Shown: piece after piece, positions 1,784 to 64,000 of the stretch
Position numbering within the stretch: position 1 is the first letter of the stretch
Layout of the letters: every line of letters begins with the position of its first letter
Source: an uncultured virus (IMG/VR IMGVR_UViG_3300042545_002012)
Lineage: Duplodnaviria > Heunggongvirae > Uroviricota > Caudoviricetes
DNA length: 64,000 nucleotides
Reading direction: 5' to 3' (one strand)
Virus record (IMG/VR): IMGVR_UViG_3300042545_002012
Made by a program: the position numbers and the translations under genes
The notes under the pieces: generated by a model
Database searches by the model: none
Told to the model about the DNA's origin: nothing
Seen by the model: the letters and a program-made list of their open reading frames with translations, nothing else

Positions 1784-1786
1784 AAA

Positions 1787-3385: not shown

Positions 3386-3430
3386 TCAGATTAAGCTGAT
3401 AATATCATATTAATAATTAATGTTGCAAAA

Positions 3431-6475: not shown

Positions 6476-6826
6476 ATGGATGATATACAGAACGAAGCTT
6501 TTGATCTTATCCAATCTCACAGACAGGAATTAAAAGTAAGGCTTGATGAGTTGGTGCAAAAATATCGCAAATATCCTGATGGCTTTGAATTTCTATTTAG
6601 AGGGGAAGACGACAAACCAGAAAAATGTAAAATTATCGACGCTTATATATTTTATGTTTATGATGCCAATGGACTACCAGACTCGCAAAGTATTGCAGTT
6701 TGGTATAGATGCTATTGTCCTAGTTGGTGCTTAGAAGATGGTGTTTATGTACCAATATCAGACAAGCTTTTAGATAGAGCTATCGAAAAATACGGGTTAC
6801 ATGGCCCTACTACTGCCAAAGCTTGA
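6476..6826 (+). CDS. Hypothetical protein
   Basis: 116-aa ATG ORF convergent with terL. Confidence 0.55.
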   Translation: MDDIQNEAFDLIQSHRQELKVRLDELVQKYRKYPDGFEFLFRGEDDKPEKCKIIDAYIFYVYDANGLPDSQSIAVWYRCYCPSWCLEDGVYVPISDKLLDRAIEKYGLHGPTTAKA

Positions 6827-9070: not shown

Positions 9071-9907
9071 TTATTTCTTGGTAAATACCATCCCATATTC
9101 GTTAGGTTTATCAGGTATTTCAATATTTTGCTTTAGGATTAATTTGTTGCTTTTAAAAGAAGAGTAATCCACCTCATGTTGCCATCTACCCCATTTTTGG
9201 ACAATTTTTGTCACATCAGGATGTTGATCTTTCAGGCTTTTAGCCATCAAATAACGCCCATCGGTTTTACCGTCAAGTTTGTATAACTCTTCTGTGTTTC
9301 CGCCTTTGACTGTCATTGTCGCAATTTTATCAGCCAGAAAAGCACAAAAAAGAATCGTACACCATCCGTCTTTTAATGCCCTTAAAGACAAATCTGTATC
9401 TTCATTGTACCGACCTCTCCATCTGTAGGGTATTTGGTTGTTAATCAGTATGCAACTATATATACGAGTATTTAAAATTAATGGGTTACATTTCTTTTTT
9501 CTTGGAACAAACATTTCATACTGAAAACCAGAAATAGCTACATTTTTATACCTCTCACATAAATCTTCAGCTGCATAAAATATAGTGCCATCAGCAACCC
9601 TGTATTTTATATTTTTGTTTAACCTATAAAAATCTCTAATATTGTCATCTAATATCCAATGCCTTTTATAACCTCTAGAGATAGAATCATCCCATACCCA
9701 ATTCCTAGCAGGGATCGATCCTTGCCCTAAATTGCTAAATGGTAATACTTTTATTTTTTCAGGATTAATCACAGAAGCATATTGATCGTATTCCTGCGGT
9801 TCAATGACAATATGATATGGAATATTTTTCTGCTCCAAGGCTTTACTTGTATGCCTTGATTCGTGGCGACCTTTAGAAATAATATATACAGGATATCTAG
9901 GATTCAT
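9071..9907 (-). CDS. GT-A-fold glycosyltransferase-like protein (TET-associated GT / GREB1-like family)
   Basis: YPVYIISKGR, ARNWVWD, HWILDDNI (DxD-like), YSCILI, YNEDTDLSLR and GGNT motifs. Confidence 0.8.
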   Translation of the reverse strand: MNPRYPVYIISKGRHESRHTSKALEQKNIPYHIVIEPQEYDQYASVINPEKIKVLPFSNLGQGSIPARNWVWDDSISRGYKRHWILDDNIRDFYRLNKNIKYRVADGTIFYAAEDLCERYKNVAISGFQYEMFVPRKKKCNPLILNTRIYSCILINNQIPYRWRGRYNEDTDLSLRALKDGWCTILFCAFLADKIATMTVKGGNTEELYKLDGKTDGRYLMAKSLKDQHPDVTKIVQKWGRWQHEVDYSSFKSNKLILKQNIEIPDKPNEYGMVFTKK

Positions 9908-10553
9908 TTTTGACTGAGTATGCTTTTAAATCTTCTTTGAGAACAACAGGATAATTTATATATTTTGTTTTTTCAGTTATTTTTTGACCAACTAAATCAG
10001 CAAAATTATTTAAGTCTTCTAAGGAGTAAAAATTAACTTTAATAGATTTAAATGCATCAGCATCATTTTGCTCAAACTCTGGCATACCCTGCCAAACTTC
10101 ATTAGGATCGTTGGTTCCTTCTTCTTGCTGCTCTGTCGCAACCAACGCTGCTAATTCATCTTCAAAAAACATATCACTAATATCAACTTCATCAGCGATA
10201 GTAGCCAATATATCAGCGTCCCAATCTAGGTCAACTGATGCGATCCGATTAGCAGCGATCGCTAATTTCTTCGCCCTTGGATCATCGGCACTAGGGATAT
10301 CGATCCGCCTCACGATGATCGGGCGTGTGCCATCTGCATCAATGACGATCGGCTCTACATCTTCACCAAATCTTTCGTAAGCTGTCTCTAATCTTGCACT
10401 GCCATCAAATATCTCACCATCGGCGGCGCTTGTCATGGCTCCGATAAAGCCATTTTCACTCATGCTTTTGTCAAGCATTCCTAAGCCGCGTGGAGTATGC
10501 TTATTCGCATTTTGTCTTTGCGGCTTAAACGCTGATATTTTCTCTTTCGCCAT
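9897..10553 (-). CDS. ParB/Srx-like N-terminal domain protein with a C-terminal WQGMPEF motif
   Basis: NANKH, IFDGSAR and LAIAANR..LDWD motifs; overlaps the glycosyltransferase start. Confidence 0.7.
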   Translation of the reverse strand: MAKEKISAFKPQRQNANKHTPRGLGMLDKSMSENGFIGAMTSAADGEIFDGSARLETAYERFGEDVEPIVIDADGTRPIIVRRIDIPSADDPRAKKLAIAANRIASVDLDWDADILATIADEVDISDMFFEDELAALVATEQQEEGTNDPNEVWQGMPEFEQNDADAFKSIKVNFYSLEDLNNFADLVGQKITEKTKYINYPVVLKEDLKAYSVKNES

Positions 10554-12197: not shown

Positions 12198-12908
12198 CTA
12201 AAGCGATCGCGTCTTTACGTTTAACTGCGTTCTGATTTCTGGCAATTTTGCAACATAGCTAACCAAATCTAGCAAGCGATTACCACGCTTAGCAGCGATC
12301 ACAGCCTCACATGCTGCGTACTCACTGATGCTCTTAGCTAATTTGTCGCTTCGATAATTACCAGAATTAATTTCAGTTTTGCTAAATCCCATAGCCATAA
12401 GCTCTTCATATCGTGTGAGCAAATGAGTAAAGGCAGATCGGTAAATGTGCAACGTATCAAGCTCAAATTGCACTGGGAAATAATCGCGATTAGTTGCCTC
12501 TAACGCCCAAGGCAAAATATGTTTTTGCCCTGATTCCGCAATGCAAATAGTAAAGGGCGGCTTTGGCGGATCAAGCAACCAAGTCCTGATTTGAGCGCGT
12601 GTGGGGAGGCGATCAACTATTTCTAGCGTGTTCCCCCCCTCAGTATGTTGATTACCAAATTTAGGATAAGAACCATACGCATCATCAGCAGAAAGGAGCC
12701 ATGACCAGCCCCTAGCAAATAATGTGCTGTATTTTCCCTTCGCTTCATTCCAATAAAAAGCCCTTAACGGAATCACCCATGCACAGCGATCGCATAGATG
12801 CTTTGACTCAGGACATCTAGCGCTACTATGTGCAGTGAATGAATCTTTGAGAACTAACGGTTTATCAGCGTTAGGGGCGGCGCAAAGGTAGCAGTAATTA
12901 TTATTCAT
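12198..12908 (-). CDS. csf1: Type IV(-B) CRISPR-associated large subunit Csf1 (Cas8-like)
   Basis: Zn finger CYLC...KDSFT...LCDRC, LLDPPKPPF.I.IAESGQKH, GFSKTEI.SG.Y and RG..LLDL; ATG at 12908, alternative TTG at 12950. Confidence 0.78.
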   Translation of the reverse strand: MNNNYCYLCAAPNADKPLVLKDSFTAHSSARCPESKHLCDRCAWVIPLRAFYWNEAKGKYSTLFARGWSWLLSADDAYGSYPKFGNQHTEGGNTLEIVDRLPTRAQIRTWLLDPPKPPFTICIAESGQKHILPWALEATNRDYFPVQFELDTLHIYRSAFTHLLTRYEELMAMGFSKTEINSGNYRSDKLAKSISEYAACEAVIAAKRGNRLLDLVSYVAKLPEIRTQLNVKTRSL

Positions 12909-27213: not shown

Positions 27214-27259
27214 ATTACTGATTTTGAGACGATAGAACTTTTAACGACGGGTGATTGAT

Positions 27260-30200
27260 ATGGCTGATGAGAATTACGCAATTAGAGTAAGTTTTGATGG
27301 CATCGACAAGGCGATCAGTGACATCAAAACTTTGCAATCTGCGATCGGTAATATCAAAGCACCCGTCTTAAATTTGGGCGGCGCGGATGCTTCTAACATA
27401 GCTGTCGCTGCACTAAAAAAACTACAGCTAGAAATAGACTCTTTAGAGAAGAAAAAGGCACAAAGCGGCGCAAACGACGCAACTAGATCGGCTGCTTTTA
27501 TTTCGCAACTAGAGAGGCAAAAAGCAGCTAGCGCTGTACGGGTATCAGATGGCGCTGACAAAGAGGCGGCGCGAGTTGCACAAGAATTACTACGATACAA
27601 ACAGCAATTAGCAGCTATAGATGCAAAGCTAATTAATCCTGCTGATATTGCTAACGCTAAAGCACTAGCGAGTGAAATCAATAAACTCAATCTTGACAAA
27701 ATCAAGAAAGGATTTGACGATGCGAGTCCTGTAACTTTTAATCAATTTATTGGTGCTACTACTGAGAAAGCGCGAGATTTAGCTGAGCAACTACAAAATA
27801 CATCGCAGACATTAGAACGGATTGGCACTACTTTCAATCAAGTTTCTAGTGCTGCTAATCAGGCTTTTTTGGGGTTTGATACAGCTAAAACAAAGATTGC
27901 TACTTTATCCAGCGAGTCGGACGCTTTTGCAGGTGTAGCGGTCAAACTATCAGGTGAGCTAAAAAATCAGGTAACTAGCACTGAGATTTTAGGCGCACAA
28001 TATGAGATTTTATCTAGTGGATTCAGTAATGTAGCTGACGCTTCAGAGATTACGAGAGTATCGGTATTAGGTGCTAAAGCTGGTTTTACCGATACTGCTA
28101 CGGTAGCTGACGCAACTACATCAGTGCTTAATGCCTATGGATTGGCTGCTAGCGATGCGGCTTTAATTGTCGATAAATTTGCAGTTGTGCAAGATAAAGG
28201 TAAAACCACGATCGGACAATTTGCGGGGCAACTAGGAAAAATCGCTCCAATAGCAAAAGCAGCGGGTGTAAGTTTTGACGAAGTATCGGCGGCGATCGCA
28301 ACAACTACAGCTACTGGTATTAAAACAGAAAGTGCTGTTAGTGGAGTAAGACAGGCGATCGTTACATTGCTTAAACCTACAGCAGCAGCAACCAAAGAAC
28401 TAGAAAAATATGGCATTGCAAACAGCGCTGCGATCCTAAAAACTGAAGGGTTAGCAGGTGTGCTTGGTAGGCTGTCCAAAGCGGGCGCTACATCTTCAGA
28501 GCAACTATCTAAGATCTTTACAGATGTTGATGGATTGGCGGCTGTATTACCTTTAATTAGCGGCGATCTTGGTAAATTTAACGATAATCTAGCGGCCATT
28601 GGTAATGCATCAGGTAAAGCACAGCAAGGCTTTGATACTGTCGCCAAATCTGCTGAAGGACAAATCACATCAGCAATTAACAAGATTAACGAGGCATTGG
28701 TTAATCTAGGACGCGGCGCACAAGTTGCATTCTCCCCATTAATAGCGGCTGTAGGCGGCGCGATTGATATCTTTAATCAATTACCCGCGCCGATCCAAGT
28801 AGGCTTAGGCGCGATCATAGGACTAGTTGGAGGTGTCGCCACATTAGGTGCGGCTCTCACAGCTTTAGGCGCGGCGGCTCCAGCTTTTGTTGGGGGGTTA
28901 AAGTTATTTGGTGGGGCGGCTGGTATTGCAGCTTTTGGTGTTAATGCCCTCACCTTTGCGACTACCCTAGCTAGTAATGCCTTTACACTGCTAACCACTA
29001 AAGCGGGATTAGCGGCGATCGCTCAAGGGGCACTTGCTGTAGGTACGGGAGTGCTAACAGGTGCGCTCACGGCTGCTAGTGTAGCGGCGTATGCACTGAC
29101 AACGCCATTGGGGTTAATTGTTATTGCTGCGATTCCACTAATTGCAGTAGGTAAGCAATTATCTTCAGCTTTTAATGTTTCGGAATCGACAAAAAGCTTG
29201 CAGGATTACAAGCAAAAATTAGCAGAATTACAAGCGCTACGCGGTAAGCTAGCGCCACCTGAGCAAACTACTGACGACGGATTAGGAAGACAAGGCGCAA
29301 CATTTGATATTTTTGGGGCGCAAAGGGGGCGACAAAAAGAAGTAATTGCATTTGCTGAAAATCAAAAGGAATATACCAAAGCCCTCGACGAATCACTCAA
29401 CGTATTGAATAAATACGGTGTAGCCATTGACGCTACAGGGGCTAAAAATAGATTAGGTGCCGAAGGAGTAGCGAAATTTAATAAAGAAACTAAGGAGCAG
29501 GTTGAAAATATTGATTTAGCTATTAATTCCTTGAAAGCGCAAGCTCAAGGCGCTTCTGATAACCCTGCTTTACAAAAACTTCTAAACAATGAGATTGCAA
29601 TATTCTCCAAACGCAAAAAACTTTTAGAAGATCGAATTGCTGCGGTAAATAGTACAGCAGCAGAGGAAGCATCAGCGATCGCTAAAGTAACCGATGAACA
29701 ACGCAAGCAAGCTGAAAGAATCAGGGAAGCCCAAAACCAAGACGCTGAAAAGAATATCAAGCGATCCTTTGAAGACACCAAAGCCAAACGCGATCGCGAG
29801 AATGCCAATGCAATCAAGGCAATCGAAGAAAAAAATGCACTCGCAAAAGGTGAGCTAGATCGCAAGCAAGCGCTAGAAACAGAGGCACTAAAGGAAAAGC
29901 AAACCCTAGCTTTACAAGATAAGCAACGCGCATTTGACGACACTCAGAATGCCAAAAAACTACAACTTGAAGATGCTCTTGATGCCAAGAAACGTGCAAA
30001 CGAGGAGAAACTAAACAAACTCAAGCAGGATTTTGATGACAAGCAAAATGCGCTTAAGGAACAGAGAGCAGAAAAGCAACGTAAGGATGACGAGTTGTTT
30101 GCAGCGCAACGCGCTCAACGTGACAAACAAGCGTCTGAGGCTTTGTCAAAAGCTAAGCAATTAATCAGTAATGAAGGCGCGATCGCTACTGCTAGCCCAG

Positions 30201-31207
30201 AAGATCGGGCTAGGATTGCAGCGCAAATCGAAGAAGAGAATCGCATTAGATCGCAAGCAGCGACCCAAGGACAGGGCGGAGTACAAAGCCAAGAACAGTT
30301 AGTTGCTCAAGCCAAGCAAATAGCTCAAGTATCCGCGATCGCTACGGGTGAAGAGCAGAAAAAAGTACAGCTTGCCTTAGACGAATTGGAGAAAGCCAAC
30401 AAAGCCAAGCAGCTTGAAATCGATAAAGCTGAAGATGCAAAGCGCACTGAGGTCAAGAGAGCTAGTGATAAGGCTTTTGAAGCTGAATTAAACGCTGCTA
30501 AGTTGGCTTTTGATGCTGAGCAAAACGCTGCTAAGTTGGCTTTTGAGAACACTGTACTCAAACCTGAAAAACAAAAAATCGAAGCTGAATTACAGGCTAG
30601 TAAATTAGCTTTCGAGAGAGGTGAACTTGCAGCAATTAAAAAGCAGCAAGCCGATGAAGAACGTGCTTTAAAACTACAGCAAACCAACGAGGACTTAGCA
30701 CTCAGGAAAGCTGCTGATGCTGAGCTAGAGACGATTAAGTTAGCTCAAAAAGAGAAAGAGCTAGCGCTTGATCGGGCGTTTGAGGATCAGAAAATCGAAC
30801 GTGAGAGAGTATTTAAAGAGCAACAAAGGGCGCTAGATAAAGCGTCTGCGATTGAGATACAACAAATCCTTGGTAAGTCTGCACAGCAAATTATCAGCGC
30901 TCTATCAGTCGCCAAAGGGGCTTCACCACTTAGCGGCGCTGTAGGGGTAGGTAAAGTTCCTGCTTTTGCTAGTGGTGTTACAAACTTCCGCGGCGGTATG
31001 GCATTGGTAGGAGAACGAGGTGCTGAGCTTGTGACATTGCCTAGAGGCTCTAATGTCCTACCTGCAAATCAGACTAAGAACGTATTGAACAATTCGGGCG
31101 GTAACAAAACCTATAACGTAAATGTAACTACAGGCAGTGGTAACGCTACAGAGATCGCTTTGCAGATACAAAGGGAGATGGCGAGATCGGCGGCGTTGAG
31201 TATGTAA
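27260..31207 (+). CDS. Tape measure protein (TP901-family core)
   Basis: ~1315 aa; Y.ILSSG, TSVLNAYGL and GKTT..Q motifs; Ala/Gly hydrophobic stretch; long coiled coil; C-terminal FASG...GG.ALVGERG.ELV.LP.GS.V. Confidence 0.93.
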   Translation: MADENYAIRVSFDGIDKAISDIKTLQSAIGNIKAPVLNLGGADASNIAVAALKKLQLEIDSLEKKKAQSGANDATRSAAFISQLERQKAASAVRVSDGADKEAARVAQELLRYKQQLAAIDAKLINPADIANAKALASEINKLNLDKIKKGFDDASPVTFNQFIGATTEKARDLAEQLQNTSQTLERIGTTFNQVSSAANQAFLGFDTAKTKIATLSSESDAFAGVAVKLSGELKNQVTSTEILGAQYEILSSGFSNVADASEITRVSVLGAKAGFTDTATVADATTSVLNAYGLAASDAALIVDKFAVVQDKGKTTIGQFAGQLGKIAPIAKAAGVSFDEVSAAIATTTATGIKTESAVSGVRQAIVTLLKPTAAATKELEKYGIANSAAILKTEGLAGVLGRLSKAGATSSEQLSKIFTDVDGLAAVLPLISGDLGKFNDNLAAIGNASGKAQQGFDTVAKSAEGQITSAINKINEALVNLGRGAQVAFSPLIAAVGGAIDIFNQLPAPIQVGLGAIIGLVGGVATLGAALTALGAAAPAFVGGLKLFGGAAGIAAFGVNALTFATTLASNAFTLLTTKAGLAAIAQGALAVGTGVLTGALTAASVAAYALTTPLGLIVIAAIPLIAVGKQLSSAFNVSESTKSLQDYKQKLAELQALRGKLAPPEQTTDDGLGRQGATFDIFGAQRGRQKEVIAFAENQKEYTKALDESLNVLNKYGVAIDATGAKNRLGAEGVAKFNKETKEQVENIDLAINSLKAQAQGASDNPALQKLLNNEIAIFSKRKKLLEDRIAAVNSTAAEEASAIAKVTDEQRKQAERIREAQNQDAEKNIKRSFEDTKAKRDRENANAIKAIEEKNALAKGELDRKQALETEALKEKQTLALQDKQRAFDDTQNAKKLQLEDALDAKKRANEEKLNKLKQDFDDKQNALKEQRAEKQRKDDELFAAQRAQRDKQASEALSKAKQLISNEGAIATASPEDRARIAAQIEEENRIRSQAATQGQGGVQSQEQLVAQAKQIAQVSAIATGEEQKKVQLALDELEKANKAKQLEIDKAEDAKRTEVKRASDKAFEAELNAAKLAFDAEQNAAKLAFENTVLKPEKQKIEAELQASKLAFERGELAAIKKQQADEERALKLQQTNEDLALRKAADAELETIKLAQKEKELALDRAFEDQKIERERVFKEQQRALDKASAIEIQQILGKSAQQIISALSVAKGASPLSGAVGVGKVPAFASGVTNFRGGMALVGERGAELVTLPRGSNVLPANQTKNVLNNSGGNKTYNVNVTTGSGNATEIALQIQREMARSAALSM

Positions 31208-35695: not shown

Positions 35696-35845
35696 CCTTG
35701 TTATTACGCTCAGGAAAAGCAGGTTTAAATAGTTGTCCTCTATCGTCCTTGTTATTACGCTCAGGAAAAGCAGGTTTAAATAGTTGTCCTCTATCGTCCT
35801 TGTTATTACGCTCAGGAAAAGCAGGTTTAAATAGTTGTCCTCTAT
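35696..35845. repeat. 51-bp tandem repeat, about 3 identical copies
   Basis: ccttgttattacgctcaggaaaagcaggtttaaatagttgtcctctatcgt starting at 35696, 35747 and 35798 (third copy 48 bp). Confidence 0.95.
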
Positions 35846-36074
35846 AGGAGTAGATTCTCTCTCGCTCCATGAATTTAAATATAGTTGATTACGTTAGTAA
35901 TGTCAACTATATTTTAAAAATAATTTTGCCCAACAAAAAAGACGATCATGCGATCGCCTTCAAACTCTCAAAAAATCATTACAAATCCACAAATCTCAGC
36001 TTTTCGATTCTCCGCTCATTAGGATCTAGATCAGCCAAATTTTTAACGCAATCAAAATATAGCATAGAGAGGAG

Positions 36075-54086: not shown

Positions 54087-55028
54087 ATGTCAGCTATCAC
54101 AACTACATCTCAATCAAGCATCACTCATTTCAACCCTGAACAAATGAAGGTACTGCAAGAGCAGCTAGCCCCTAAGTGTTCTCCTTCAGAATTGCAGTAT
54201 TTTATCGAAGTCTGTAAGATCACTGGCTTGAGTCCATTTACTCGCGAGATTTATGCTATCTCTCGCAACAATTGGAACCCAGAAACAGGGCAAAATGAGC
54301 CTAAGATGACAATTCAAGTCAGTATTGACGGCTTGCGTAAAAGGGCAGCCAACACTGGATTGTATGACGGATCTGCTACTTATTGGTGCGGTGACGATGC
54401 TGTATGGGTTGAAGTTTGGTTAAAAAATACTCTTCCATCCGCCGCCAAAACCATCGTTTATCGCAAAGGTTCACAGCCCTTTGTTGCGGTTGCTCGTTTT
54501 GATTCTTACAAACAAGAGTATAAAAACAAGAAAACTCAGAAGATGGAACTATCGGGACAATGGGCTAAAATGCCTGATTTGATGATCGGGAAAGTTTCCG
54601 AGGCTCTTGCATTGCGTAAAGCATTTCCAGAACAAACGGCTGGTTTGTACTCAGGGGAAGAGATGGATCAGATTGACAGCGAATCTAAACCCGTCTACAG
54701 CCAATCTCTACCAGTGCAGCCTCAACCAGTGCAACAGACAGCAGGATGGGACAAGGAACTATGGGCAATCTTTGAAAAGGGCGTAAATAAATGCGCTACT
54801 GTCGAGGATCTAGAAAAGCTTATTGGATGGGTTGCGAAAAGCTCTAGCAAGTACGAGCCAAGTCAAGATCAGCTCTCAATCATTACTAATATTTTGGGTG
54901 ATTTCACTAAGAAGTTTAATCAGGAAGTTGCTTCTCAACCCGTGAAATCTGCACAAGCTGAACCTGATGAAGTAGAGCCAACGCTGGAAGATGAAAGCCG
55001 CAATCCTATAGACGCTGACGATTTCTAA
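54087..55028 (+). CDS. bet: Red-beta/Bet-family single-strand annealing recombinase
   Basis: EL..F...C...GL.PF.REIY, IQVSIDG.R..A..TG.Y.G, W.KMP..M..K..EA.ALRKAFP....GLY..EEM. Confidence 0.9.
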   Translation: MSAITTTSQSSITHFNPEQMKVLQEQLAPKCSPSELQYFIEVCKITGLSPFTREIYAISRNNWNPETGQNEPKMTIQVSIDGLRKRAANTGLYDGSATYWCGDDAVWVEVWLKNTLPSAAKTIVYRKGSQPFVAVARFDSYKQEYKNKKTQKMELSGQWAKMPDLMIGKVSEALALRKAFPEQTAGLYSGEEMDQIDSESKPVYSQSLPVQPQPVQQTAGWDKELWAIFEKGVNKCATVEDLEKLIGWVAKSSSKYEPSQDQLSIITNILGDFTKKFNQEVASQPVKSAQAEPDEVEPTLEDESRNPIDADDF

Positions 55029-55779
55029 CCACACACTCACAGGCGGCGCAATGCCGCCTAAACATTATGCAAGAACTACTACAACAAGTTCTATACCTCA
55101 CTATTAAGATTGCGGTTGCGAGGAGTTAATTATGATCGGAGTATATATTTTTACTGTGATTTGTTGTCTAGTGTCTCTATGTATTTCTTCTTTTACCCTT
55201 GGCTACACTATTGGAAAAAGAAGCAGATGAGCGATAAGAAATTCAAACTCATCCGCACCTATACCGTAACTACAGATGAGACAACATTCACACCTAAGCT
55301 AGACGTACTAAGGCTTAAGATGGAACGTCGCCAAAATGAATGCCCTAACGATGATTTTAGGATCGTAGACGAACAAGGCAACCCCGCCGAACTAGCCGAT
55401 TTTCTTGAATCAGAGCTAGCTCATCCCGTGGCTAAGGCTAAGCGGGTGAAGGAAGAGAAGAAAGAACAGTACAGGAAGGAAGTAGTCAAGAGGTTGAAGC
55501 GATGCTAAGTACAATCAAAGTATCTGTAACCGCCGCACACATCGCCGCCGCAAGATATCCTAGTAAGTCACCATTAGCTCTTGCCCTGCGAGAGATATAT
55601 TCCGAGAATGCTCACGTTACACAACACTACGCATATATCGGCAACAAAGTTTATCAGCTACCAGAAGCAGCAATTGCATCAGAGCGTTGTTTTGATTATT
55701 TAGCAAAAGGCGGTTCTAGCCAAGGTGAGATTGCTGAGAATATTTTTGCTTACGAGTGCGAGCTAGTGGAGTTGGTGCA

Positions 55780-56799
55780 ATGAGTAAAAAAACATTTACA
55801 GCATTGTTTGCAGGTGGAGGTGGTGCAGATTTAGGAGCGATCGCCGCAGGACTAGAACCATGTGAATCAGTGGAATACGATCCTGCGATCGCTGAAGTTC
55901 ACAAAGCAAATATAAACGGCAAAATGCATGTTGCCAATATCCTTGATTGCGATCCGTATCGCTTTGAAAAGCCTGATATCCTTCATGCTAGCCCAGTCTG
56001 TAAGCAATTCAGCACAGCTAATACTAACAAAGGCGAAGCTCAGCTTGATATCGACAGCGCCCGAAAGGTAGCAGAATTTATCCAAGTGCTACAGCCTAAG
56101 CATTTTACTCTTGAGAATGTAGAAGCTTACCGCAAATCCAAATCGTTCCATTTGATTGTTGAGATACTTCACAAGATTGGATATTTTTGCAATTGGCAAG
56201 TACTAAATGCTGCTGATTTTGGAGTGCCACAATCTCGCCGTCGCTTAATTTTAATCGCTGTTAAAGACGGCTTTATTCCTGCATTGCCACAACCTGAAAA
56301 GCATATTGGATGGTACGAGGCGATCGCTGATAAGGTTCATGATTTGCCTGATAGCAAACTGGCGGATTGGCAGTTGAAAGCTTTGCCTAGTGAGATTAGG
56401 GAGCATTTGTTGATTGATAACAGAAATAGCACACCACCAGTCACAATAAAAAACGGAAGTGAAACAGCTTTAACTCTTACAACTTCAACGACTACTAGGG
56501 ATTTAAAAGCCATCTTAATCGAAAACACAGGCGCAAGAAGCGATCGCGAACTCCAAACCCGCGCCGCCGATGAGCCGTGTTGGACATTGAGAGCAATGGG
56601 GCAGGACGGGCATTATCACAGGGCTAATGCTTTGCTAAATGCTCGTATCGTAGCTCTAGACATTGCTTGCTTAGCTCGTTTGCAGTCATTCCCTGATAAC
56701 TATCAGTGGAGTGGCAAAAAGTCGTTAGATGGCAAAATTATCGGTAACTCAGTACCACCCCTGATGTATCAAAAGATTTTGCAATCGATCATTCAATAA
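55780..56799 (+). CDS. C5-cytosine DNA methyltransferase
   Basis: LFAGGGG, SPVC..FS, ENV, ADFGVPQSRRR, RLQSFPD and IGNSVPP. Confidence 0.92.
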   Translation: MSKKTFTALFAGGGGADLGAIAAGLEPCESVEYDPAIAEVHKANINGKMHVANILDCDPYRFEKPDILHASPVCKQFSTANTNKGEAQLDIDSARKVAEFIQVLQPKHFTLENVEAYRKSKSFHLIVEILHKIGYFCNWQVLNAADFGVPQSRRRLILIAVKDGFIPALPQPEKHIGWYEAIADKVHDLPDSKLADWQLKALPSEIREHLLIDNRNSTPPVTIKNGSETALTLTTSTTTRDLKAILIENTGARSDRELQTRAADEPCWTLRAMGQDGHYHRANALLNARIVALDIACLARLQSFPDNYQWSGKKSLDGKIIGNSVPPLMYQKILQSIIQ

Positions 56800-56870: not shown

Positions 56871-57086
56871 ATGAAATATCTACTAATCCTCGCATTGCTT
56901 TCTATTTCCACCCCTGCGATCGCACAAGTTAACCGCACCGTTGGCAATGGCTTCTCTGACCTTGGTAAAATCACAGCTAGAAGCAATCAAGAGGCTTCTA
57001 GGCTATGCCGCAAGAAAGGCGGTAACGTTGTGATTAAGACTGGTAACAGATACACTTGCCACTATTTCCAGAGGTTAGCAAAATGA
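56871..57086 (+). CDS. Small secreted Cys-pair protein
   Basis: Signal peptide MKYLLILALLSISTPAIA. Confidence 0.55.
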   Translation: MKYLLILALLSISTPAIAQVNRTVGNGFSDLGKITARSNQEASRLCRKKGGNVVIKTGNRYTCHYFQRLAK

Positions 57087-57679
57087 TCGAAATATATTGG
57101 TTAGGCGATCGCTTTCACTGCACTGATAAAAAGCTAGAAGCCACGCATCAATTGGTGTTAGAGAGTAAATCAAACTCTAAACATATTTGCCAAAAGATGC
57201 AGAATTTAGGTTTTGACCTTGAAATAATCTGTCGTGATATATTCCCTAGAAATCAGATGTTTCTTGACAACTTAACTTTTTACCCCAAGAACTTACCAGT
57301 TGTTTGCAAGGGATTTACAATCAAAGAGATGGGAACTGGCTTTAATGTTTGCTTCAACCTAATCGGTTACACTGTCGCCGCAAATAATCTAGGGATAGCT
57401 TTGCGGATATATGGCGGCTCATTTCAAGGTTGTTTGCATCCTTTATTTTACAAGGCTTTAGAGAATTACTTCCTAAGTGAGGGTATTGAAGTTTATAAAC
57501 AATGTCCTTACTTTGCGGATTCGCAATATCTTAAATGCACCGTCAATCCTACGACTCCATGCAAGCAATGTGATGAGTCTCCACAGCTATTCAAAAATAC
57601 TTCTATCGAATGGATTCAGATCGGCGCTTGGCAGCATGTTCTTAAATATCGGGATGTGCAAGGTTTAATTTATGCTTAA
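57083..57679 (+). CDS. Hypothetical protein with a Cys-rich (DUF6464-like) C-terminal motif
   Basis: CPYF..S.YLKC.VNP..PC..C. Confidence 0.5.
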   Translation: MIEIYWLGDRFHCTDKKLEATHQLVLESKSNSKHICQKMQNLGFDLEIICRDIFPRNQMFLDNLTFYPKNLPVVCKGFTIKEMGTGFNVCFNLIGYTVAANNLGIALRIYGGSFQGCLHPLFYKALENYFLSEGIEVYKQCPYFADSQYLKCTVNPTTPCKQCDESPQLFKNTSIEWIQIGAWQHVLKYRDVQGLIYA

Positions 57680-57714
57680 AGTAACAATCACCCCAGACCA
57701 CATCGGAGAAAACC

Positions 57715-58239
57715 ATGACAGAACTGCAACTCAAACGATTAAAAGACCTCGCTTTTCGCTTGGCTAAGGCTAGTTTTAAACACGATCGCTACTACGGCTG
57801 GACGGTTAATCAACTGCACACTTTCTTTAAATATGCGACCGATTATCCCAAATGGAATAACCTAGAGGATGTCTACGACCTTATCTCTGAGTATTCCACT
57901 GAGGTCGTGGATTATGCTCATTTAATGGGTAATAGGCTTGAACGAGCAAAGTTAGATCGCTTTGTTGATACAAGGAGCCAGTCAGAAGACTGTACCGAAG
58001 AGGAACTAGAGGCTTACGATAATTTGCGCTTTGAGATAGCAGATAGGGTAAGCAATGCTTTTTCTTGTTGTTTGCACATTGCCTTTGATGTGGTAACAGA
58101 ACCTTGGGTCGGCGGTGTTTTAGGCTTTACTGTTGGAGATTTAAAACGAGCTTATCCTAAAGGTTTTCCAAATTGGTTTAAAGAAAAATTTACTGTCGAT
58201 TTGGACAGTTTGCCTAGCACTGAATATTTAACTTTGTGA
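57715..58239 (+). CDS. Hypothetical protein
   Basis: GGAG RBS; GVLGFTVGDL.R.YP.G.P.W. Confidence 0.6.
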   Translation: MTELQLKRLKDLAFRLAKASFKHDRYYGWTVNQLHTFFKYATDYPKWNNLEDVYDLISEYSTEVVDYAHLMGNRLERAKLDRFVDTRSQSEDCTEEELEAYDNLRFEIADRVSNAFSCCLHIAFDVVTEPWVGGVLGFTVGDLKRAYPKGFPNWFKEKFTVDLDSLPSTEYLTL

Positions 58240-58517
58240 AGGCATGAACTTAACACCACTTCCCAGAGAATCCCATCAACAGTTTTACGATCGCCTTGTC
58301 AGAGATGATCTATTAAATTAAATCTTGAGGACAATCTGCGATAATAAAAGTGTTAAGTCACAGAACCACTGCCATGAAAATGAAACCTAAGCCCAAAGGT
58401 AGTAAGCCCAAGCCTAAGCCTTATAAGTAAGCAAAAAGAGAGAGTGATCATTGCGATCGCTCTCTCTTTTTGCTGTGGGTTATTAATTAATCCAATTCGC
58501 GATCGCCGCTGTCATGC

Positions 58518-59310
58518 CTAAATCAACTCCATCGCTACCCATTGGAGTAGCGCTTTGAATGTGTCTACATTTTGCAAGTCTAGCCAGTCGTCTGCTTTTT
58601 GTGTAAAGCCGTCGGTTACTTTTGAGGGGGTATCCCATCTTTCAGTCATCAAAGCCCATCCCAAGTTAATAACTATATCTGCAAGATATTTTTGAGGCAT
58701 AGCCACAATCTCAGCCTCAAGCCAATCAGGGATCGGCGCTGTTGATGCGTAGTGGTTTACGGGTTTAGTCATCACAATAAACCTCAGTCATTCCTACAAT
58801 TGGTTGCGATTCAATTACAAATAGGCATTTTCGGCTTACCTTATTGCCATAATGAAATACTGGAATACTCGCTATTGCGATATTGCGAGAAATCCAGTAT
58901 TTTTCGCAATATTGGATTTGTGTCATGGGTTAAGCAACCTCTCTACGAGCGATCATCTTTTGCACCTTAACCAAAAACTTGTATTGCTCCCTTTGAGCGT
59001 CTTGCAAAGCGGCGGCGCGTGGATTCGATACTGTGCAATAGATGTTAGCCATGAGAGAACCCATAACGGTTTGAATCTCATTAGTAAATTTTGCGGCACA
59101 TTCGATTTTATCGAGATTGAATTGATTGGCAAAATTTTGATTGTATTCCCAAATCATGCACTCATGCATAGAGCGTGAAGCTCTTACAAAGTCGCCTTTA
59201 GCGATCGCCGATTGGCATTGGGTTTTCTCATATTCGTGGTTTTCTCTCAAGTCTTGCAACTCTAATGCGATTGCGTTTTTGATTGGTGCGAGTTGTGCTG
59301 CTGTAGTCAT
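58518..59310 (-). other. Minus-strand cassette of small hypothetical genes (58518-58772, 58930-59310)
   Basis: TTGACT at 59367-59372 (minus); terminator 58431-58473. Confidence 0.55.
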
Positions 59311-59483
59311 TGCTTTTTCCTGTGTTATTGCTTTCTGTATATACATTACTACCCTTTTGAGGGATAGTCAATACACAAATGATTAATATTGTCACTGCTT
59401 TTCGCATAATTGTATAAGTAAAAAGTATCCTTTTAGGGGGTAGTAGATAGTATAGTGATTAAGAGTAATGAGGTAACAAGTAA

Positions 59484-59915
59484 ATGAGTGGATATTTCCA
59501 AATTGGTATCTACCAAGGCAAGACAGAACCAAATATAGGAACTTTGTGGCGAAGCGCTTACCAGTTGGGCGCTAGTGGTGTTTTTACTATCGGGAAAAGA
59601 TACAAGCATCAAGCCAGTGATACGTACAAGACCGAAAGGCAGATCCCATTAGTGAACTACCGTGACTTCGACCACTTTCTTGACAATCGTCCAGTCGGCT
59701 CTCAGTTGATTGGTGTTGAGATGGGTGGTGCTGCATTGCGTGAATTTAAGCACCCAAAGACTGCGATCTATTTACTAGGTAGTGAGGATAACGGATTACC
59801 TAACGAAGTTAGCGCCCAATGTCAGCACATTGTATCTATCGAATCTGTTAACACCGCCTCCTATAATGTGGCTGTTGCTGGTAGCTTAGTAATGTATTCA
59901 AGGATGTTTATGTAA
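59484..59915 (+). CDS. SpoU/TrmH-family (SPOUT) RNA 2'-O-methyltransferase, single domain
   Basis: NIGTL.RSA...G, LLGSE..GL and S.NVAVAGS..MY. Confidence 0.85.
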   Translation: MSGYFQIGIYQGKTEPNIGTLWRSAYQLGASGVFTIGKRYKHQASDTYKTERQIPLVNYRDFDHFLDNRPVGSQLIGVEMGGAALREFKHPKTAIYLLGSEDNGLPNEVSAQCQHIVSIESVNTASYNVAVAGSLVMYSRMFM

Positions 59916-60138
59916 TGAAAATAGTTAGAGAGAACGTGGTAACTACATCTTTGTTGGAGCATGAAGGAGAGATTTATGTTCGCACCGAAGATCCTTGTAA
60001 TATCTATTGGAATAAAGAGATGGAAACTCATTTATACGAGTACTTTAAACCTAAGAGTAGATGGCAAATTCGTATTAAGTGCGAGTGGCGTAATTGTGAG
60101 TTGCCAGAATTAGAGCGCAAATACCAAGAACTAAAATC

Positions 60139-60381
60139 ATGCAACTAAATCTCAAGCGCTTACGCAAGGCGCGATCGCTCACTCAAGAGCAACTGGCAAT
60201 TCTTTGCGATACTTGGTTAAAGAGTAAGAGCAATGCGACAACTATGCATAAATGTAGTTTACGCAAAATCCAAAAGTTAGAGCAGGGTTATTACAGGTTC
60301 TTGGAATTTGACCTAATTGACGCGCTTTGCAGTGTACTCAACTGCAAAGCTGGCGAGTTGATTAAGGTAGAGAGGCTTTAG
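60139..60381 (+). CDS. XRE-family HTH regulator
   Basis: LKRLRKARSLTQEQLA...I.KLEQG...L...LNC...EL. Confidence 0.85.
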   Translation: MQLNLKRLRKARSLTQEQLAILCDTWLKSKSNATTMHKCSLRKIQKLEQGYYRFLEFDLIDALCSVLNCKAGELIKVERL

Positions 60382-60384
60382 AGC

Positions 60385-60750
60385 ATGACTAACACGATCT
60401 CAATCCGAAAGAAAGTCGCTGAGCTTTGCGGGTTTACTGGTGATTATCAAGAATTTGTTTTAGATGGACTCTGTGGAATTAACGACAGATCAACCGTTAG
60501 AAACCCTCTTGATGGCAGTAAGCAATATATTCCAGTGCCAAAATATGATCTATCCCTAGACGCAATCACTAGAGCTTTTGATGATCATAGGTTGACTTAT
60601 GTTTTGCAAAAAGGCGTAGCAGATAATGGTGATATTGGCTATTTTGCTTCTAATCCTAAAGGCGAAAAGTACTCTGATACAGCAGCTAAAGCCATGTGTT
60701 ATCTATTTATTCACTGTATGGAGAATAATGATGGCTACAAGTCAGACTGA
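60385..60750 (+). CDS. Phage ABA-sandwich-like protein
   Basis: I...VAE..G...VP.Y...LDA....TA..AMC. Confidence 0.5.
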   Translation: MTNTISIRKKVAELCGFTGDYQEFVLDGLCGINDRSTVRNPLDGSKQYIPVPKYDLSLDAITRAFDDHRLTYVLQKGVADNGDIGYFASNPKGEKYSDTAAKAMCYLFIHCMENNDGYKSD

Positions 60751-61335
60751 AGTTAGTATAAACAATAGGTTGTACCTAGAAAAAGCCAATGAAAAAGTCA
60801 GAAAAATTGTCATTATTCCTGAATGGCAAAAGCTTTTGAGAGGTTTTGAATGTGAGCTTAGCGCTACCAAATATTCTTTTGAAGAATTAAGAGCCATAGA
60901 AATGGCGATCGCCGCTAACCCATTGTTAAACAATGAAGATCGATTGGTACTTGTTCAAGAATTTATAAGTAAAAATAACCATGAGTGACACAGAAAAACA
61001 GCCAGAAAAACAGCGCATCCCGATCGCCATTTCATCACAGCAGATGGAAGATCGGTATAGGGTAGAAGCTTCTCGCGCAAAAGCTCAGAAGATGGGTGCT
61101 AGTTCTAGGATTTTGAGGTTATTTGAGTAAATTTACAGGGTAAAACAATGTATAGATTTTTAACTAACTTTCGATGGATTCGCAAATTAGCAGGAAAGAA
61201 CTGGAAGCTTTTAGAATCTTTTTTGGCTAATCAAAAGCCTACTTGGTATAACTGGGATTTAGTGCAAACAAATCCTTTGATGATGAGAATGATTGACACT
61301 GGATTGATTACTATTTTGGAAAGCGAGAGTTACGA

Positions 61336-61878
61336 ATGACGCTAGTTGACCACGAAATCGAAAAGCTTTGCGAAGAAAAAGGCGTTATCGTGCCATTTGA
61401 CAAAGCAATGCTTAACCCACAATCACTTGATGTGCGGATAGGCTACACGCTGAAAACTGAGAATAACTGGCTTAAGCGATGTCTAACAGGTCAAGAGTTT
61501 ACTACTCATGATTTGACCAAATACTCAGAATCAAACCCGTTTTTGGTATCGCCACTAAGTTTTATTCTGACTTGTACTTACGAGACTTTCAATATACCGA
61601 GTAATTACTCAGCAGAGTTTAGGCTTAAGTCAAGTAGAGGGCGATCAGGATGGGGGCACGTTTTGGCAGTATGGATTGATGGTGGGTTTAATAATTCAAA
61701 GCTGACCTTAGAGTTGCTAAATCACCGTATTTGGGCTTGGCAACCTATTTATCCACTTATGCGAATTGGTCAAATTGTTTTTGCTGAGACGGCTTATCCT
61801 AGGCATGATTACTCAGAAACAGGGCGGTATAACAACGATTTGGATACGCAACCAGCAAAACCAGAGAAGAGAATATAA
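61336..61878 (+). CDS. dcd: dCTP deaminase / trimeric dUTPase family protein
   Basis: LNP.SLDVR.G, T.E.F..P, KSS.GR.G, IDGGF...LTLEL.N, RIGQ.VF and Y...GRY. Confidence 0.88.
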   Translation: MTLVDHEIEKLCEEKGVIVPFDKAMLNPQSLDVRIGYTLKTENNWLKRCLTGQEFTTHDLTKYSESNPFLVSPLSFILTCTYETFNIPSNYSAEFRLKSSRGRSGWGHVLAVWIDGGFNNSKLTLELLNHRIWAWQPIYPLMRIGQIVFAETAYPRHDYSETGRYNNDLDTQPAKPEKRI

Positions 61879-62112
61879 AAAGATGATCGTCAAGATTGAA
61901 GACATCCAAGCATGGCTAGCGCAAAAAGCTCTTTGGGATAGCCAGAACATTGAAAGCATTGAGTTCACGCTAAACGGCGAACCATATAAACCGCAAATGT
62001 TTTGGACTGATGCCGACGGTAATCCAACTGACCCGATCGCCGCAGATAATTTTAAATTTATGGGCTGTTGCACCCATAGCATTTTTGAGATGATTGTTGG
62101 GGATTTGAAATA

Positions 62113-62355
62113 ATGAGTTGGACGTATCGAATCTCAAAGCAAACCCTTGAAAATGGCGATGAGTTGTTTGCTATCCGCGAGTTTTACCCAAATAGTAAGG
62201 GCGAATTAACCAGTTGGAGCCACGAAGAAGTAACACCTGTTGGCACAACACTGGAAGATCTAAAAGGCGAGTTAGCACTGATAATGCAGTGCTTGGACAA
62301 GGAAGTAATTGATATTGGTGGTGAAGACAATGAAAAAATGGTACGCGATGTTTGA
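62113..62355 (+). CDS. Conserved small phage protein
   Basis: MSW.YR......FAI.E.Y...G....W....P.G.TLE.L...L. Confidence 0.6.
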   Translation: MSWTYRISKQTLENGDELFAIREFYPNSKGELTSWSHEEVTPVGTTLEDLKGELALIMQCLDKEVIDIGGEDNEKMVRDV

Positions 62356-63073
62356 GGATCGAGGCTCAAACTGCATTGCTTATGGCGGATTTGACACTGA
62401 AGACGAAGCGAAAGCTATGTTTGGTGGAAGGGTTAGCTATGCAATGCTTATCCCAGACGATAGATTGGTTGTTTATCCAGATTATCGCACCGCAAAGTCC
62501 TGTATAGGAATAGGACTTTGCGGTGCACATGGCACGGGCAAAACCACACTAGCGAACGCCTTATCGCAAAAGCTAGGGATTCCATATATCCCTATTGATG
62601 CGAGTAGTGTGTTTTTGGAGTATGGTTTCCACCCGTCCGACAAATTGGATATCCGCACTAGGTTGTTTTTGCAACAAAAGATTTTGGCTAAAGCTGAAGA
62701 CATCTGGTTTGAAGTTGACGAACCTAGCTTTATCTGCGATCGCACACCGTTGGACATGGCTGCTTACTTGCTTACTGATGTTGGCAATGGTGAGTTAGAT
62801 AAGCATACACAGTCTGAGGTTATGGACTATTTGCAAAATTGCTCTAATGTTACGGCTCGGTATTTTGACAAAATTGTATTAATTCCTCCCGCAATCCCTT
62901 TTGTCGAGCGTGAGTACAAAGCAGCGATTAATCAACCGTTAATACTCAAGTTGCATACTCAGCTTTTGGGGATACTCAATTATTTGGATTTGCCTTATAA
63001 GGAGTTGCCAAAAGACTGCATGGAGTTGGGCGATCGCGTTGCTTTTGTTAAAGATTATCTCAATGAATCATGA
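62330..63073 (+). CDS. P-loop kinase (NadR/AAA_28-like, candidate nucleotide kinase)
   Basis: IGLCGAHGTGKTTLA and DRTPLD..AY. Confidence 0.8.
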   Translation: MKKWYAMFEDRGSNCIAYGGFDTEDEAKAMFGGRVSYAMLIPDDRLVVYPDYRTAKSCIGIGLCGAHGTGKTTLANALSQKLGIPYIPIDASSVFLEYGFHPSDKLDIRTRLFLQQKILAKAEDIWFEVDEPSFICDRTPLDMAAYLLTDVGNGELDKHTQSEVMDYLQNCSNVTARYFDKIVLIPPAIPFVEREYKAAINQPLILKLHTQLLGILNYLDLPYKELPKDCMELGDRVAFVKDYLNES

Positions 63074-63417
63074 TGCTCTTAGAAATTGAACGAGCCAAGC
63101 TCATCGGCTTTTTCGATGCCCATCGCGGCTCTTACTCCTTGCGCTACATTGAAATATGCACTCAAATCAATACGAGCGCATTGCGCTTACTTCTTAACCA
63201 AGGCGCGATCGCATACGGTAACAGGCGATTGCATATTGAGTGCGTTGAGGGTAATTATCGCGCTATCCCTAAGCTACGTAAGGCGACACCAAAGGAGATG
63301 CGGGCGCGTGAGTTAAGTAGACTGCGTAATAAAGCTTTTGATCATGCTAGGGCGCGTGGTGTGTCTGTCGGCAAAGCTAAGTTGGCGGCTTGGAATGCTG
63401 TTTGTGATCTAGAATAA
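63070..63417 (+). CDS. Hypothetical basic protein
   Basis: Coupled to the kinase gene. Confidence 0.55.
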   Translation: MMLLEIERAKLIGFFDAHRGSYSLRYIEICTQINTSALRLLLNQGAIAYGNRRLHIECVEGNYRAIPKLRKATPKEMRARELSRLRNKAFDHARARGVSVGKAKLAAWNAVCDLE

Positions 63418-63445
63418 AAACACCGTAGATGTACGAGAAATATTT

Positions 63446-63976
63446 ATGTATGGAATAGAAACTGAGGACAAGACTACAGCTTTAGCCAGTGCGCTTAGTT
63501 ATTGGGTTTTTCGCTGTAGAGACAAGAGTAAAAGTCCTGCCATGGGCTTAAAAACATGGGAATATTTTCAAAGCAGTATCCAAAATGCTGCTATTCCCTC
63601 TCGCAATATCGACGACTACATTGAGAATTTAGCCAAGAAGCTAATTGTTGCACACCTCAACCCAAAAGAATGGACTCGCATAATCGCGCCAAAACAAGTG
63701 GTTTTACGGGCTACTGTGAATGACGATGGCAGTATGGGAGACATTCAACAGAAAGACTGCGATCAAAATATTGATCTTTGGTGGTTGGGATGGAACGACA
63801 TTTTAGCCAAATTGAAATATACGCACGGGATAAGCGATCGCCATATTCTGAATATGTGCAAATCCAAACCTCACGTGATTACCACTTTTTGTCGCGTTCG
63901 CTTTGAAAGCGATCGCGCTTTGAATATTCCAGAAGAAACAGAAAATACTCTAGATGTAGAGGCTAATAATGCTTAA
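63446..63976 (+). CDS. Putative type IV-B CRISPR small subunit (Cas11-like)
   Basis: Helical 176 aa; W.YF...I.NAA..S..IDDY.E.L.KKL and C-terminal ...RVRFE..R pattern resemble type IV-B small subunits. Confidence 0.5.
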   Translation: MYGIETEDKTTALASALSYWVFRCRDKSKSPAMGLKTWEYFQSSIQNAAIPSRNIDDYIENLAKKLIVAHLNPKEWTRIIAPKQVVLRATVNDDGSMGDIQQKDCDQNIDLWWLGWNDILAKLKYTHGISDRHILNMCKSKPHVITTFCRVRFESDRALNIPEETENTLDVEANNA

Positions 63977-64000
63977 TTACAACCCACACGATCGCCATAA
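63969..64000 (+). CDS. Start of a coupled downstream gene, truncated by the window (Csf2/Cas7 predicted from position only)
   Basis: AGAGG RBS; ATG overlaps the end of the previous gene; MLNYNPHDRH... Confidence 0.35.
   Translation, partial: MLNYNPHDRH

Follow-up and report, generated by a model that had tools for sequence, protein, structure and literature searches.

Type IV-B is a CRISPR-Cas subtype with a function that is still unknown, and reviews of 2024 and 2025, in the text available, describe it as uncharacterised (one of them is PMC11656645). Among the closest described systems, that of Mycobacterium sp. JS623 is carried on an actinobacterial plasmid and consists of csf1, cas11, csf2, csf3 and a cysH-like gene, without a helicase, a nuclease or a CRISPR array; in its complex (Protein Data Bank (PDB) entry 7JHY) a Csf2 filament is entwined with a filament of Cas11, according to the available part of the report (PMC7937560). 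Virus-borne type IV-B systems are described for prophages (available text of PMC7038947) and for an archaeal virus, the Bathyarchaeia 'Fuxivirus' (available text of PMC10848311). Here, a 64,000-nucleotide stretch of DNA from an uncultured virus of the Caudoviricetes (IMG/VR record IMGVR_UViG_3300042545_002012), called the window below, was analysed. A 176-residue open reading frame (ORF) near its end is, with good confidence, cas11, the opening gene of a phage-borne type IV-B-like effector operon, and the ORF overlapping it is csf2, which codes for the Cas7 subunit. The system is a phage-borne type IV-B with a Cas6, no array and a detached csf1, and we infer its function and mechanism from these genes. 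The genes of the system that lie in the window are the following:

63446..63976, + strand: cas11, small subunit of the type IV-B-like Csf complex, 176 amino acids, ATG start (PADLOC, fold)
63969..64000, + strand: beginning of csf2, the gene for the Cas7 backbone subunit, with its opening 10 codons (MLNYNPHDRH)
12198..12908, - strand: csf1, zinc-finger large subunit resembling Cas8, 236 amino acids from an ATG (PADLOC, fold)

The phage system shares with the JS623 system each of the genes and each of the absences listed above, as well as the Cas11 fold described below. It differs in its carrier, a predicted tailed cyanophage, in the gene order cas11-csf2-csf3-cysH-(csf1 or cas6), in the presence of a Cas6 and, in the clade of loci to which the window belongs, in a csf1 that is about 50 kb away. 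Identity between the phage proteins and the solved JS623 proteins is very low (15% over the structural alignment for Cas11 and chain 7jhy_g), and the phage Csf2 has weak sequence similarity to chain 7jhy_e (E 0.0066). Csf1 is not known to be resolved in entry 7JHY. The 'Fuxivirus', as described in the available text of PMC10848311, likewise encodes a type IV-B effector set with a CysH-like gene and no adaptation genes, for which its authors suggest a role in counter-defence or in competition among mobile elements; unlike the window phage, it infects archaea and has a mini-array with two repeats and a single spacer. The available text does not mention a Cas6 for it (0 occurrences), whereas the window phage has a Cas6 and no repeat. 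In contrast to the window phage itself, two of its relatives (loci L021 and L022) possess a unit of two repeats and, in the leader of cas11, a further repeat. Type IV-A systems (Csf1-Csf2-Csf3-Csf5/Cas6 with DinG; PDB entries 7XG1, 8RC2 and 8RC3) have homologous Csf1, Csf2 and Csf3 and a member of the Cas6 family, but they possess a DinG helicase and CRISPR arrays and are without Cas11 or cysH, while in the phage locus Cas11 and cysH are present, the operon encodes no helicase and there is no array.

Type IV-B loci with a Cas6 are rare exceptions ('only 12 instances', available text of PMC7038947), and the phage locus resembles these twelve in combining the type IV-B gene set with Cas6; because the literature allows for such exceptions, the Cas6 marks a variant. 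The word 'cyanobacteria' has 0 occurrences in the main text of that paper, and in the accessible supplementary file Nostoc and Synechococcus are present only in protein lists, beside I-B and I-D labels. A further likeness is to CRISPR-associated transposons (CASTs), transposon-borne systems that are reported to use host CRISPR RNAs (crRNAs) by means of Cas6 (available text of PMC11656645): both are effectors on mobile elements with Cas6 as a link to the crRNAs of host arrays, the use of host crRNA by the phage being hypothetical. Unlike CASTs, the phage locus has no transposase genes and its effector is of type IV rather than type I or V. The defining points of type IV-B are matched where they were examined, with three exceptions: a Cas6 is present, csf1 lies outside the locus and the gene order is different. 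No report of a cyanophage type IV-B system was found in a literature search with most subscription journals outside its scope.

The first-pass annotation had described the ORF at 63446..63976 as coding for a helical, Cas11-like protein that overlaps the ATG of a gene leaving the window, and all parts of this description agree with the present results. Two PADLOC hidden Markov models (HMMs) for type IV Cas11 match the protein (PDLC01696, E 1e-12; PDLC01183, E 6.9e-12). The AlphaFold2 model (mean predicted local distance difference test score, pLDDT, 83.9; predicted template-modelling score, pTM, 0.78) is mainly helical, with eight helices and one small beta-hairpin (residues 88–101). When the Foldseek list obtained with this model is re-ranked with VIA-align, the top place is taken by 7jhy_g, a chain of 143 residues in the solved type IV-B complex, with a Z-score of 9.3 and a root-mean-square deviation of 2.8 Å over 114 residues; the second-best match, with a Z-score of 3.6, belongs to a type I-A Cascade complex. 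Chain 7jhy_g is presumably Cas11, because in this entry chain e carries the label Csf2 and the paper describes the entwined Csf2 and Cas11 filaments. A search of 5.8 billion proteins showed that 47 of 55 candidate proteins match Cas11 at E ≤ 0.001, down to 43% identity, all 47 being unnamed or 'hypothetical'; the Cas11 alignment contains the window protein and 35 of these relatives, with 4 fragments and 8 near-duplicates left out. The ratio of non-synonymous to synonymous substitution rates (dN/dS) of cas11 is 0.10–0.14 against five relatives; the gene is real and under constraint.

It is extremely improbable that the 176-residue protein is an unrelated helical phage protein with a chance helical-bundle likeness to Cas11. 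No Pfam, NCBIfam or PHROGs family was found for it, the Foldseek search had no match at E ≤ 0.001 (7jhy_g is at rank 28), and a Cas11-profile search of PDB sequences, discarded as spurious, returned only designed helical proteins (E 0.0029). The two type IV Cas11 HMMs, which are independent of each other, nevertheless match the protein, and, of four distant relatives tested, three are likewise matched by PADLOC models of type IV Cas11, the exception being the protein of locus L031. VIA-align warns that Z-scores under about 13 may, for helical bundles, reflect a common arrangement; the top match, however, is 5.7 Z units above the next one, itself a Cascade chain, and the gene is placed directly 5' of csf2 in 41 of 42 viral loci mapped.

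The csf2 ATG at 63969 is located inside the last cas11 codons (ATGCTTAA, an overlap of 8 bases), and its frame leaves the window at 64000. The continuation is seen in two relatives, in both of which the start of a 401-residue Csf2 is the start found in the window. The first (L012) is a 10-kb viral contig that is 99.4–99.6% identical to window positions 58002–64000 and encodes an identical Cas11; there, cas11 is followed by csf2 (PADLOC E 1.8e-42), csf3 (E 1.2e-46) and a partial cysH-like gene. The second, the nearest record (G001), is a viral contig of 80,032 bp with 127-bp direct terminal repeats, rated complete, and is 92–93% identical to the window over the cas11-side part. Its Csf2 matches PADLOC Csf2_0_IV (E 4.1e-44), its Csf3 (Cas5) matches PADLOC (E 6.5e-47) and, below the cut-off, NCBIfam TIGR03116 (E 2.4e-17), and directly 3' of csf3 is a cysH-like gene (Pfam PF01507, E 2e-13), in the translation of which a PP-loop-like motif, SWGKDS, is visible. 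The match of Csf2 to NCBIfam TIGR03115 (E 6.7e-6) is far below the cut-off. In these two relatives, beyond the equivalent of position 64000, where RAMP proteins and a 3'-phosphoadenosine-5'-phosphosulfate (PAPS) reductase domain had been expected, the overlapping ORF is a Csf2/Cas7 RAMP protein, followed by Csf3, also a RAMP protein, and then by a PAPS-reductase-like gene.

The operon order in G001 is cas11, csf2, a gene of the GIY-YIG family, csf3, the cysH-like gene, a Coq4-like gene (196 amino acids), cas6 and a terminator, consisting of a hairpin and a T-run, behind which a promoter-like site is located. The genes from cas11 to cas6 overlap or nearly abut and therefore form one operon. Between cas11 and the terminator, neither a helicase of the DinG or RecD kind nor an effector nuclease is encoded; cas1 and cas2 are not named in the PHROGs scan of 77 window ORFs, no search having been aimed at Cas1 or Cas2. 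The protein at the end of the operon matches Pfam PF09559 (E 7.2e-34) and, above the cut-off, NCBIfam TIGR02807 (E 7.8e-31), over its full length, with the G-rich carboxy-terminal motif kept in 10 of 11 aligned sequences, and is assigned from these matches as a Cas6 endoribonuclease of the Cmx6 / PF09559 group. Its sole sequence match in the PDB is a type I-B Cas6 (8fcj_B, E 2.1e-10), from what we take to be a transposon-borne system. The cas6 gene closes the operon in G001 and in loci of the window clade.

Two further genes of the G001 operon, and one behind it, are side observations (coordinates given for L002 refer to G001). The GIY-YIG protein (125 amino acids, L002:3429-3806, between csf2 and csf3; Pfam E 2.9e-5) weakly matches a group I intron endonuclease and looks like a homing-endonuclease insertion in the cas operon; of the mapped loci only G001 has this gene, and in L012 and the other mapped window-clade loci csf3 follows csf2 directly. 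The Coq4-like protein (L002:5158-5748, between cysH and cas6/csf1; Pfam E 6.4e-4) has a visible HDxxH motif and, in the Atlas, a score of 0.93 to Actinomycetota clusters in which 15–40% of the members have Coq4. This variable gene is also found in L010, L014, L024, L045, L046, L055 and L062, and could be an accessory gene of type IV-B that has gone unrecognised. About 7 kb behind the cysH-like gene of the operon, 3' of a DnaB-like helicase gene, L002:12169-13059 encodes 296 amino acids with an SGGKTS motif, by eye resembling the PP-loop/PAPS-reductase family.

The first-pass annotation had regarded the operon as a remainder lacking csf1. It is right in that csf1 is absent from the locus; the set itself is probably complete, judged from the gene content, with a Cas6 in addition, csf1 having been kept elsewhere in the genome rather than lost. 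The protein encoded at 12198..12908, proposed earlier as a partner of Cas11, proves to be Csf1: it matches PADLOC Csf1_0_IV (E 9.7e-28) and, below the cut-off, NCBIfam TIGR03114 (E 5.2e-11), and its cysteines C6, C9, C39 and C42 are invariant in 20 sequences. An alternative TTG start at 12950 would give a protein of 250 amino acids. The only Foldseek matches of its AlphaFold2 model (pLDDT 90.0) at E ≤ 0.001 are 7xg1_A (E 4.9e-4) and 8rc3_G (E 6.3e-4), 240-residue chains of type IV-A Csf complexes that are taken to be Csf1; the next match has an E-value of 0.29. When the complex of the L012 Csf3 with the window Csf1 was predicted from separate alignments, the scores were 0.01, 0.36 and 0.01, against a mark of 0.32, a result that speaks neither for binding nor against it.

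The window csf1 is on the opposite strand, about 50 kb from the operon and hence outside the locus. In G001, a csf1 that is 96% identical occupies the equivalent relative place and strand. Each of the records of five relatives contains one csf1 match, be it a copy or a remnant: in G303 it is in the operon, in G305 about 7 kb behind cas11, in G307 directly before cas11 and in G304, which is of the window type, remote and on the other strand, while in G306 a 22-residue remnant is left, csf2 and csf3 also being in pieces. The expectation that csf1 normally precedes cas11 does not hold for this phage family, in which it normally follows cysH. That the locus is a functionless remnant, broken by the detachment of csf1 and with the other genes drifting, is very improbable. 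The distance and the opposite strand of csf1 would suit such decay, but dN/dS values of csf1 are 0.12–0.19, with 0.18 between the window and G001, in both of which csf1 is detached, pointing to purifying selection on the detached gene as on cas11. Decayed loci do exist: L029 and L030 (record G306, rated 90% complete) retain only Csf2 residues 283–401, Csf3 residues 1–136 and the Csf1 remnant, and L068, with cas11 and fragments of csf2 and csf1, looks decayed as well. All frames are, however, intact in G001 and L012, a single csf1 copy is present in each of the four records that keep csf1, and at least half of the sampled words of 59400–64000 are contained in 17 metagenome runs.

The family to which the window locus belongs was collected by scanning IMG/VR with the Cas11 alignment, which gave 55 viral loci with Cas11 identities down to 41%. 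Genes were mapped by tblastn (E ≤ 1e-4, query coverage at least 60%), and the counts refer to the 42 loci that have at least 5.5 kb downstream of cas11. The genes csf2 and csf3 are each found in 41 of the 42, cysH in 40, csf1 within the locus in 33 and cas6 in 16. Both csf1 and cas6 are present in eight loci, and eight have cas6 without a csf1 in the locus (seven of the window clade, plus L046, the contig of which ends early); one, the decayed-looking L068, has neither. The usual order is cas11-csf2-csf3-cysH-csf1, with csf1 directly behind cysH in most loci, and this order is also found, with a Cas6 fragment upstream, on a contig of a metagenome-assembled genome of a Spirulinaceae cyanobacterium. 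A tblastn search with Csf2 of 50,697 GenBank phage records, a set that may omit near records, gave no match.

The cas6 gene has three or more different positions across the family, and in the window clade it occupies the slot behind cysH that csf1 has elsewhere. Three Cas6 proteins (P0052–P0054) start with 11–19 residues of Csf1 (19 in P0052), and in L047 and L048 an amino-terminal remnant of Cas6 overlaps the start of csf1 (a 42-residue ORF in L047). These apparent recombination scars tie both genes to one slot, and in the window clade csf1 has probably been displaced by cas6. The neighbouring cysH is only 50–62% identical among most window-clade loci (L010, L013–L016, L018 and L028 compared with L008), with flanking csf3 and cas6 genes that are about 95% identical; the cysH segment therefore seems to have been exchanged by recombination. 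Two loci are rearranged in other ways: in L076 a single cas11-csf2 pair is followed by additional copies of csf3 and by a second cysH and csf1, and L052 has the permuted order csf3-cysH-csf1-cas11-csf2 and an extra, inverted csf3-like gene.

No CRISPR array is present in the 64-kb window, nor in the whole 80-kb G001. A blastn-short search with eight repeat sequences like those of relatives gave, among the matches listed, only stretches of 8–17 bases with E-values of about 0.7 or worse. Searches for lone repeats in the window and G001 gave no match to the L021 repeat with up to 3 mismatches and three matches to the repeat-end motif, where 1.89 are expected, and none of the dispersed direct repeats is CRISPR-like. 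Rfam, at gathering thresholds, has no match in the window, L002 or L007, and the intergenic region behind cas6 contains no repeat, only the terminator and the promoter-like site.

Repeats are found in relatives. In L021 (6591-6729), about 2.7 kb upstream of cas11, a promoter-like site is followed by a repeat, a 72-nucleotide spacer and a second repeat; most of this region has a counterpart in L022 that is 87% identical and includes at least one copy of the repeat (L022:1972-2007). One further, identical 37-nucleotide repeat is located about 59 nucleotides before the cas11 start in both loci (L021:9355-9391, L022:4127-4163), behind TATAAT-like boxes, and this leader position suggests self-regulation; no Cas6 is found in the sequenced part of either locus. 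Long arrays occur in L055, L056 and L059, about 3–5 kb behind csf1, with two arrays of different repeats in each of L056 and L059. These were rejected as type IV-B arrays and are assigned to a Cas12, because they are next to a gene for a 622-residue Cas12 (PADLOC Cas12u2 E 9.1e-58, Cas12f E 1.7e-52); Cas12 and arrays of 37-nucleotide repeats (L055:16823-19800; L056 and L059:14684-19574) are found 1–3 kb behind a type IV-B csf1 on viral contigs of 52–64 kb. In a classification paper of 2025, a type IV-B system beside an inactivated Cas12b3 with a mini-array is depicted on an Actinomyces plasmid (available text of PMC12669027). The two-copy repeats of L071 and L073 were also rejected as CRISPR repeats: at L071:5960-6190, and in L073 too, about 3 kb upstream of cas11, they are 37-nucleotide tandem units, each with a 7-bp GC hairpin (CCCCAC / GTGGGG type).

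Complex formation, RNA source and biological role are what we infer from this gene set. As in the solved type IV complexes, copies of Csf2 would polymerise on an RNA, copies of Cas11 would form the second filament, and Csf3 and Csf1 would cap one filament end, with Cas6 binding or cutting a hairpin in the RNA of the complex. The phage is without a CRISPR array, so the RNA would have to come from elsewhere. Tentatively, and short of an even chance, Cas6 might capture host CRISPR transcripts, a source that is favoured because of the recurrence of Cas6 across the family and the lack of a repeat. The nuclease-free complex and the CysH-like enzyme would act during infection, either blunting host CRISPR immunity or turning host spacers on competing elements. 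A role in infection, suspected earlier from the position of the operon among nucleotide-metabolism genes, would fit with the whole window being phage genome. The full proposal, in which an array-less type IV-B with its own Cas6 captures host CRISPR RNAs, thereby draining immunity or redirecting spacers against rival phages and plasmids, in which the CysH-like enzyme acts on the bound target, and in which relatives represent intermediate states, one being the cas11-leader repeat through which the complex would regulate itself, is unlikely to hold in every part.

It is doubtful, yet to be taken seriously, that the complex is instead unguided, a sequence-unspecific filament on non-CRISPR phage or host RNA, with the CysH-like enzyme as the real activity and with Cas6 either no more than a cap that binds RNA or a decoy or sponge that takes up host crRNA and Cas6 substrates (anti-CRISPR by sequestration). 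The only type IV-B complex that has been purified assembled on heterogeneous non-CRISPR RNA (available text of PMC7937560), and reviews state that type IV-B may not involve target recognition (available text of PMC11656645). The lack of an array or lone repeat in the window and in the complete relative G001, and the near-constant presence of cysH, also agree with an unguided complex. The recurrence of Cas6 at three or more different positions, in 16 of the 42 loci, argues instead for a specific hairpin substrate, and the close relatives L021 and L022 have CRISPR-like repeats, one of them in the cas11 leader; an anti-CRISPR role of a whole complex is judged unlikely by Pinilla-Redondo et al. 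(available text of PMC7038947).

Several results besides the RNA of the purified complex weigh against the reading preferred here, a type IV-B effector operon working with Cas6 on host transcripts. The window itself contains cas11, 10 codons of csf2 and csf1, the remaining genes being read from relatives. Some relatives are without an intact system, which is therefore dispensable. The phage Cas6 has matches at E ≤ 1e-10 in 10 of 301 sampled genomes of the cyanobacterial phylum (the phylum of record G002), all of them at 26–34% identity; with best matches as distant as these, there is no tie to a host repeat. A profile search of genome contigs with the Cas6 alignment gave no relative, and in 401 sampled genomes of the phylum the L021 repeat has one single match, with 3 mismatches, in one genome and outside any array, so that no host was identified through Cas6 or this repeat in the sampled genomes. 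Two studies include three RNA libraries with short contigs that extend over parts of cas11 and of the ORF in front of it; these contigs are at most a hint of expression, since such libraries can hold DNA.

The cyanophage locus is one of few natural settings in which the job of type IV-B can be studied, located as it is in a DNA-metabolism block of a phage present in many lake metagenomes. The family of at least 55 viral loci varies naturally, with and without Cas6, with csf1 attached or detached, with and without repeats, with Cas12 and arrays nearby, and with decayed copies, and this variation offers a comparative handle on the loaded RNA and on the purpose of the complex. A csf1 that seems to be missing beside a type IV-B operon need not signal a defective system.

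Upstream of the operon in the window are the genes listed below, all of them, like cas11, on the + strand; the co-orientation with SpoU, dCTP deaminase and P-loop genes noted at first is borne out, with Pfam matches for each of these families:

59484-59915, + strand: SpoU-type methylase (Pfam PF00588, E 6.1e-22)
61336-61878, + strand: dCTP deaminase (PF22769, E 2.9e-22; PHROG 1663, E 5.7e-39)
62309-63073, + strand: P-loop protein (PF13521 AAA_28, E 1.1e-13)
63070-63417, + strand: 115-residue ORF 'p114' between the P-loop gene and cas11, its start overlapping the stop of the P-loop gene

The p114 ORF is directly 5' of cas11 in the window-clade loci, and a 43% identical copy is located farther upstream in L021 and L022. 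It has no Pfam or PHROG family; the Atlas points, only weakly, to helix-turn-helix proteins of phages (score 0.84), and it is uncertain whether p114 is part of the type IV-B system. A promoter and terminator scan of 57000–64000 showed no enrichment over shuffled sequences. A 208-base segment of the window (61126–61335), which G001 lacks, as do contigs from two RNA libraries and from a DNA run, carries a 63-residue ORF (61148–61339) just 5' of the dCTP deaminase gene, and is a strain-level insertion or deletion.

The PHROGs scan shows the gene set of a tailed phage, which also includes an anti-repressor, an FtsK-like protein and several DNA methyltransferases:

2315-3265, - strand: major head protein
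3431-5059: portal
5430-6173: scaffold
6800-8245, - strand: large terminase
9074-9907, - strand: glucosyltransferase-like gene (PHROG 842, E 1.1e-39)
9900-10553, - strand: DNA methyltransferase-like gene
27251-31204: tape measure, 1318 amino acids
38796-39635: DNA methyltransferase-like gene
54087-55025: RecT
55756-56796: DNA methyltransferase-like gene

G001 is collinear with the whole window, with window positions 1–3576 corresponding to G001 76457–80032 and window position 64000 to G001 58261. The window spans the ends of G001 and therefore represents, in circularly permuted form, part of a genome of about 80 kb. The palindrome GCGATCGC, presumably a mark of cyanobacteria and their phages, occurs 87 times in the window, against 0.73 times expected, and the carrier is probably a tailed cyanophage, widespread in freshwater: the 17 runs containing at least half of the sampled words of 59400–64000 are labelled as lake or freshwater metagenomes, apart from one labelled 'fungus metagenome', and one of them is possibly the source sample. 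All sampled words are present in one lake metagenome run, and most of them in others. Any part of this region is present in 20 rows from 13 studies.

The glucosyltransferase-like gene, the three methyltransferase-like genes and the dCTP deaminase together suggest modification of the phage DNA; csf1 is about 1.6–2.3 kb from the genes at 9074-9907 and 9900-10553. Within a 913-nucleotide stretch without long ORFs, and adjoining a terminator-like hairpin, a 51-nucleotide unit is present three times in tandem (35696–35848), and window positions 35878–35928 are 84% identical to the sequence directly 5' of the promoter-like site in front of the repeat unit of L021; the region 35696–35928 may serve as an origin of replication or in regulation.

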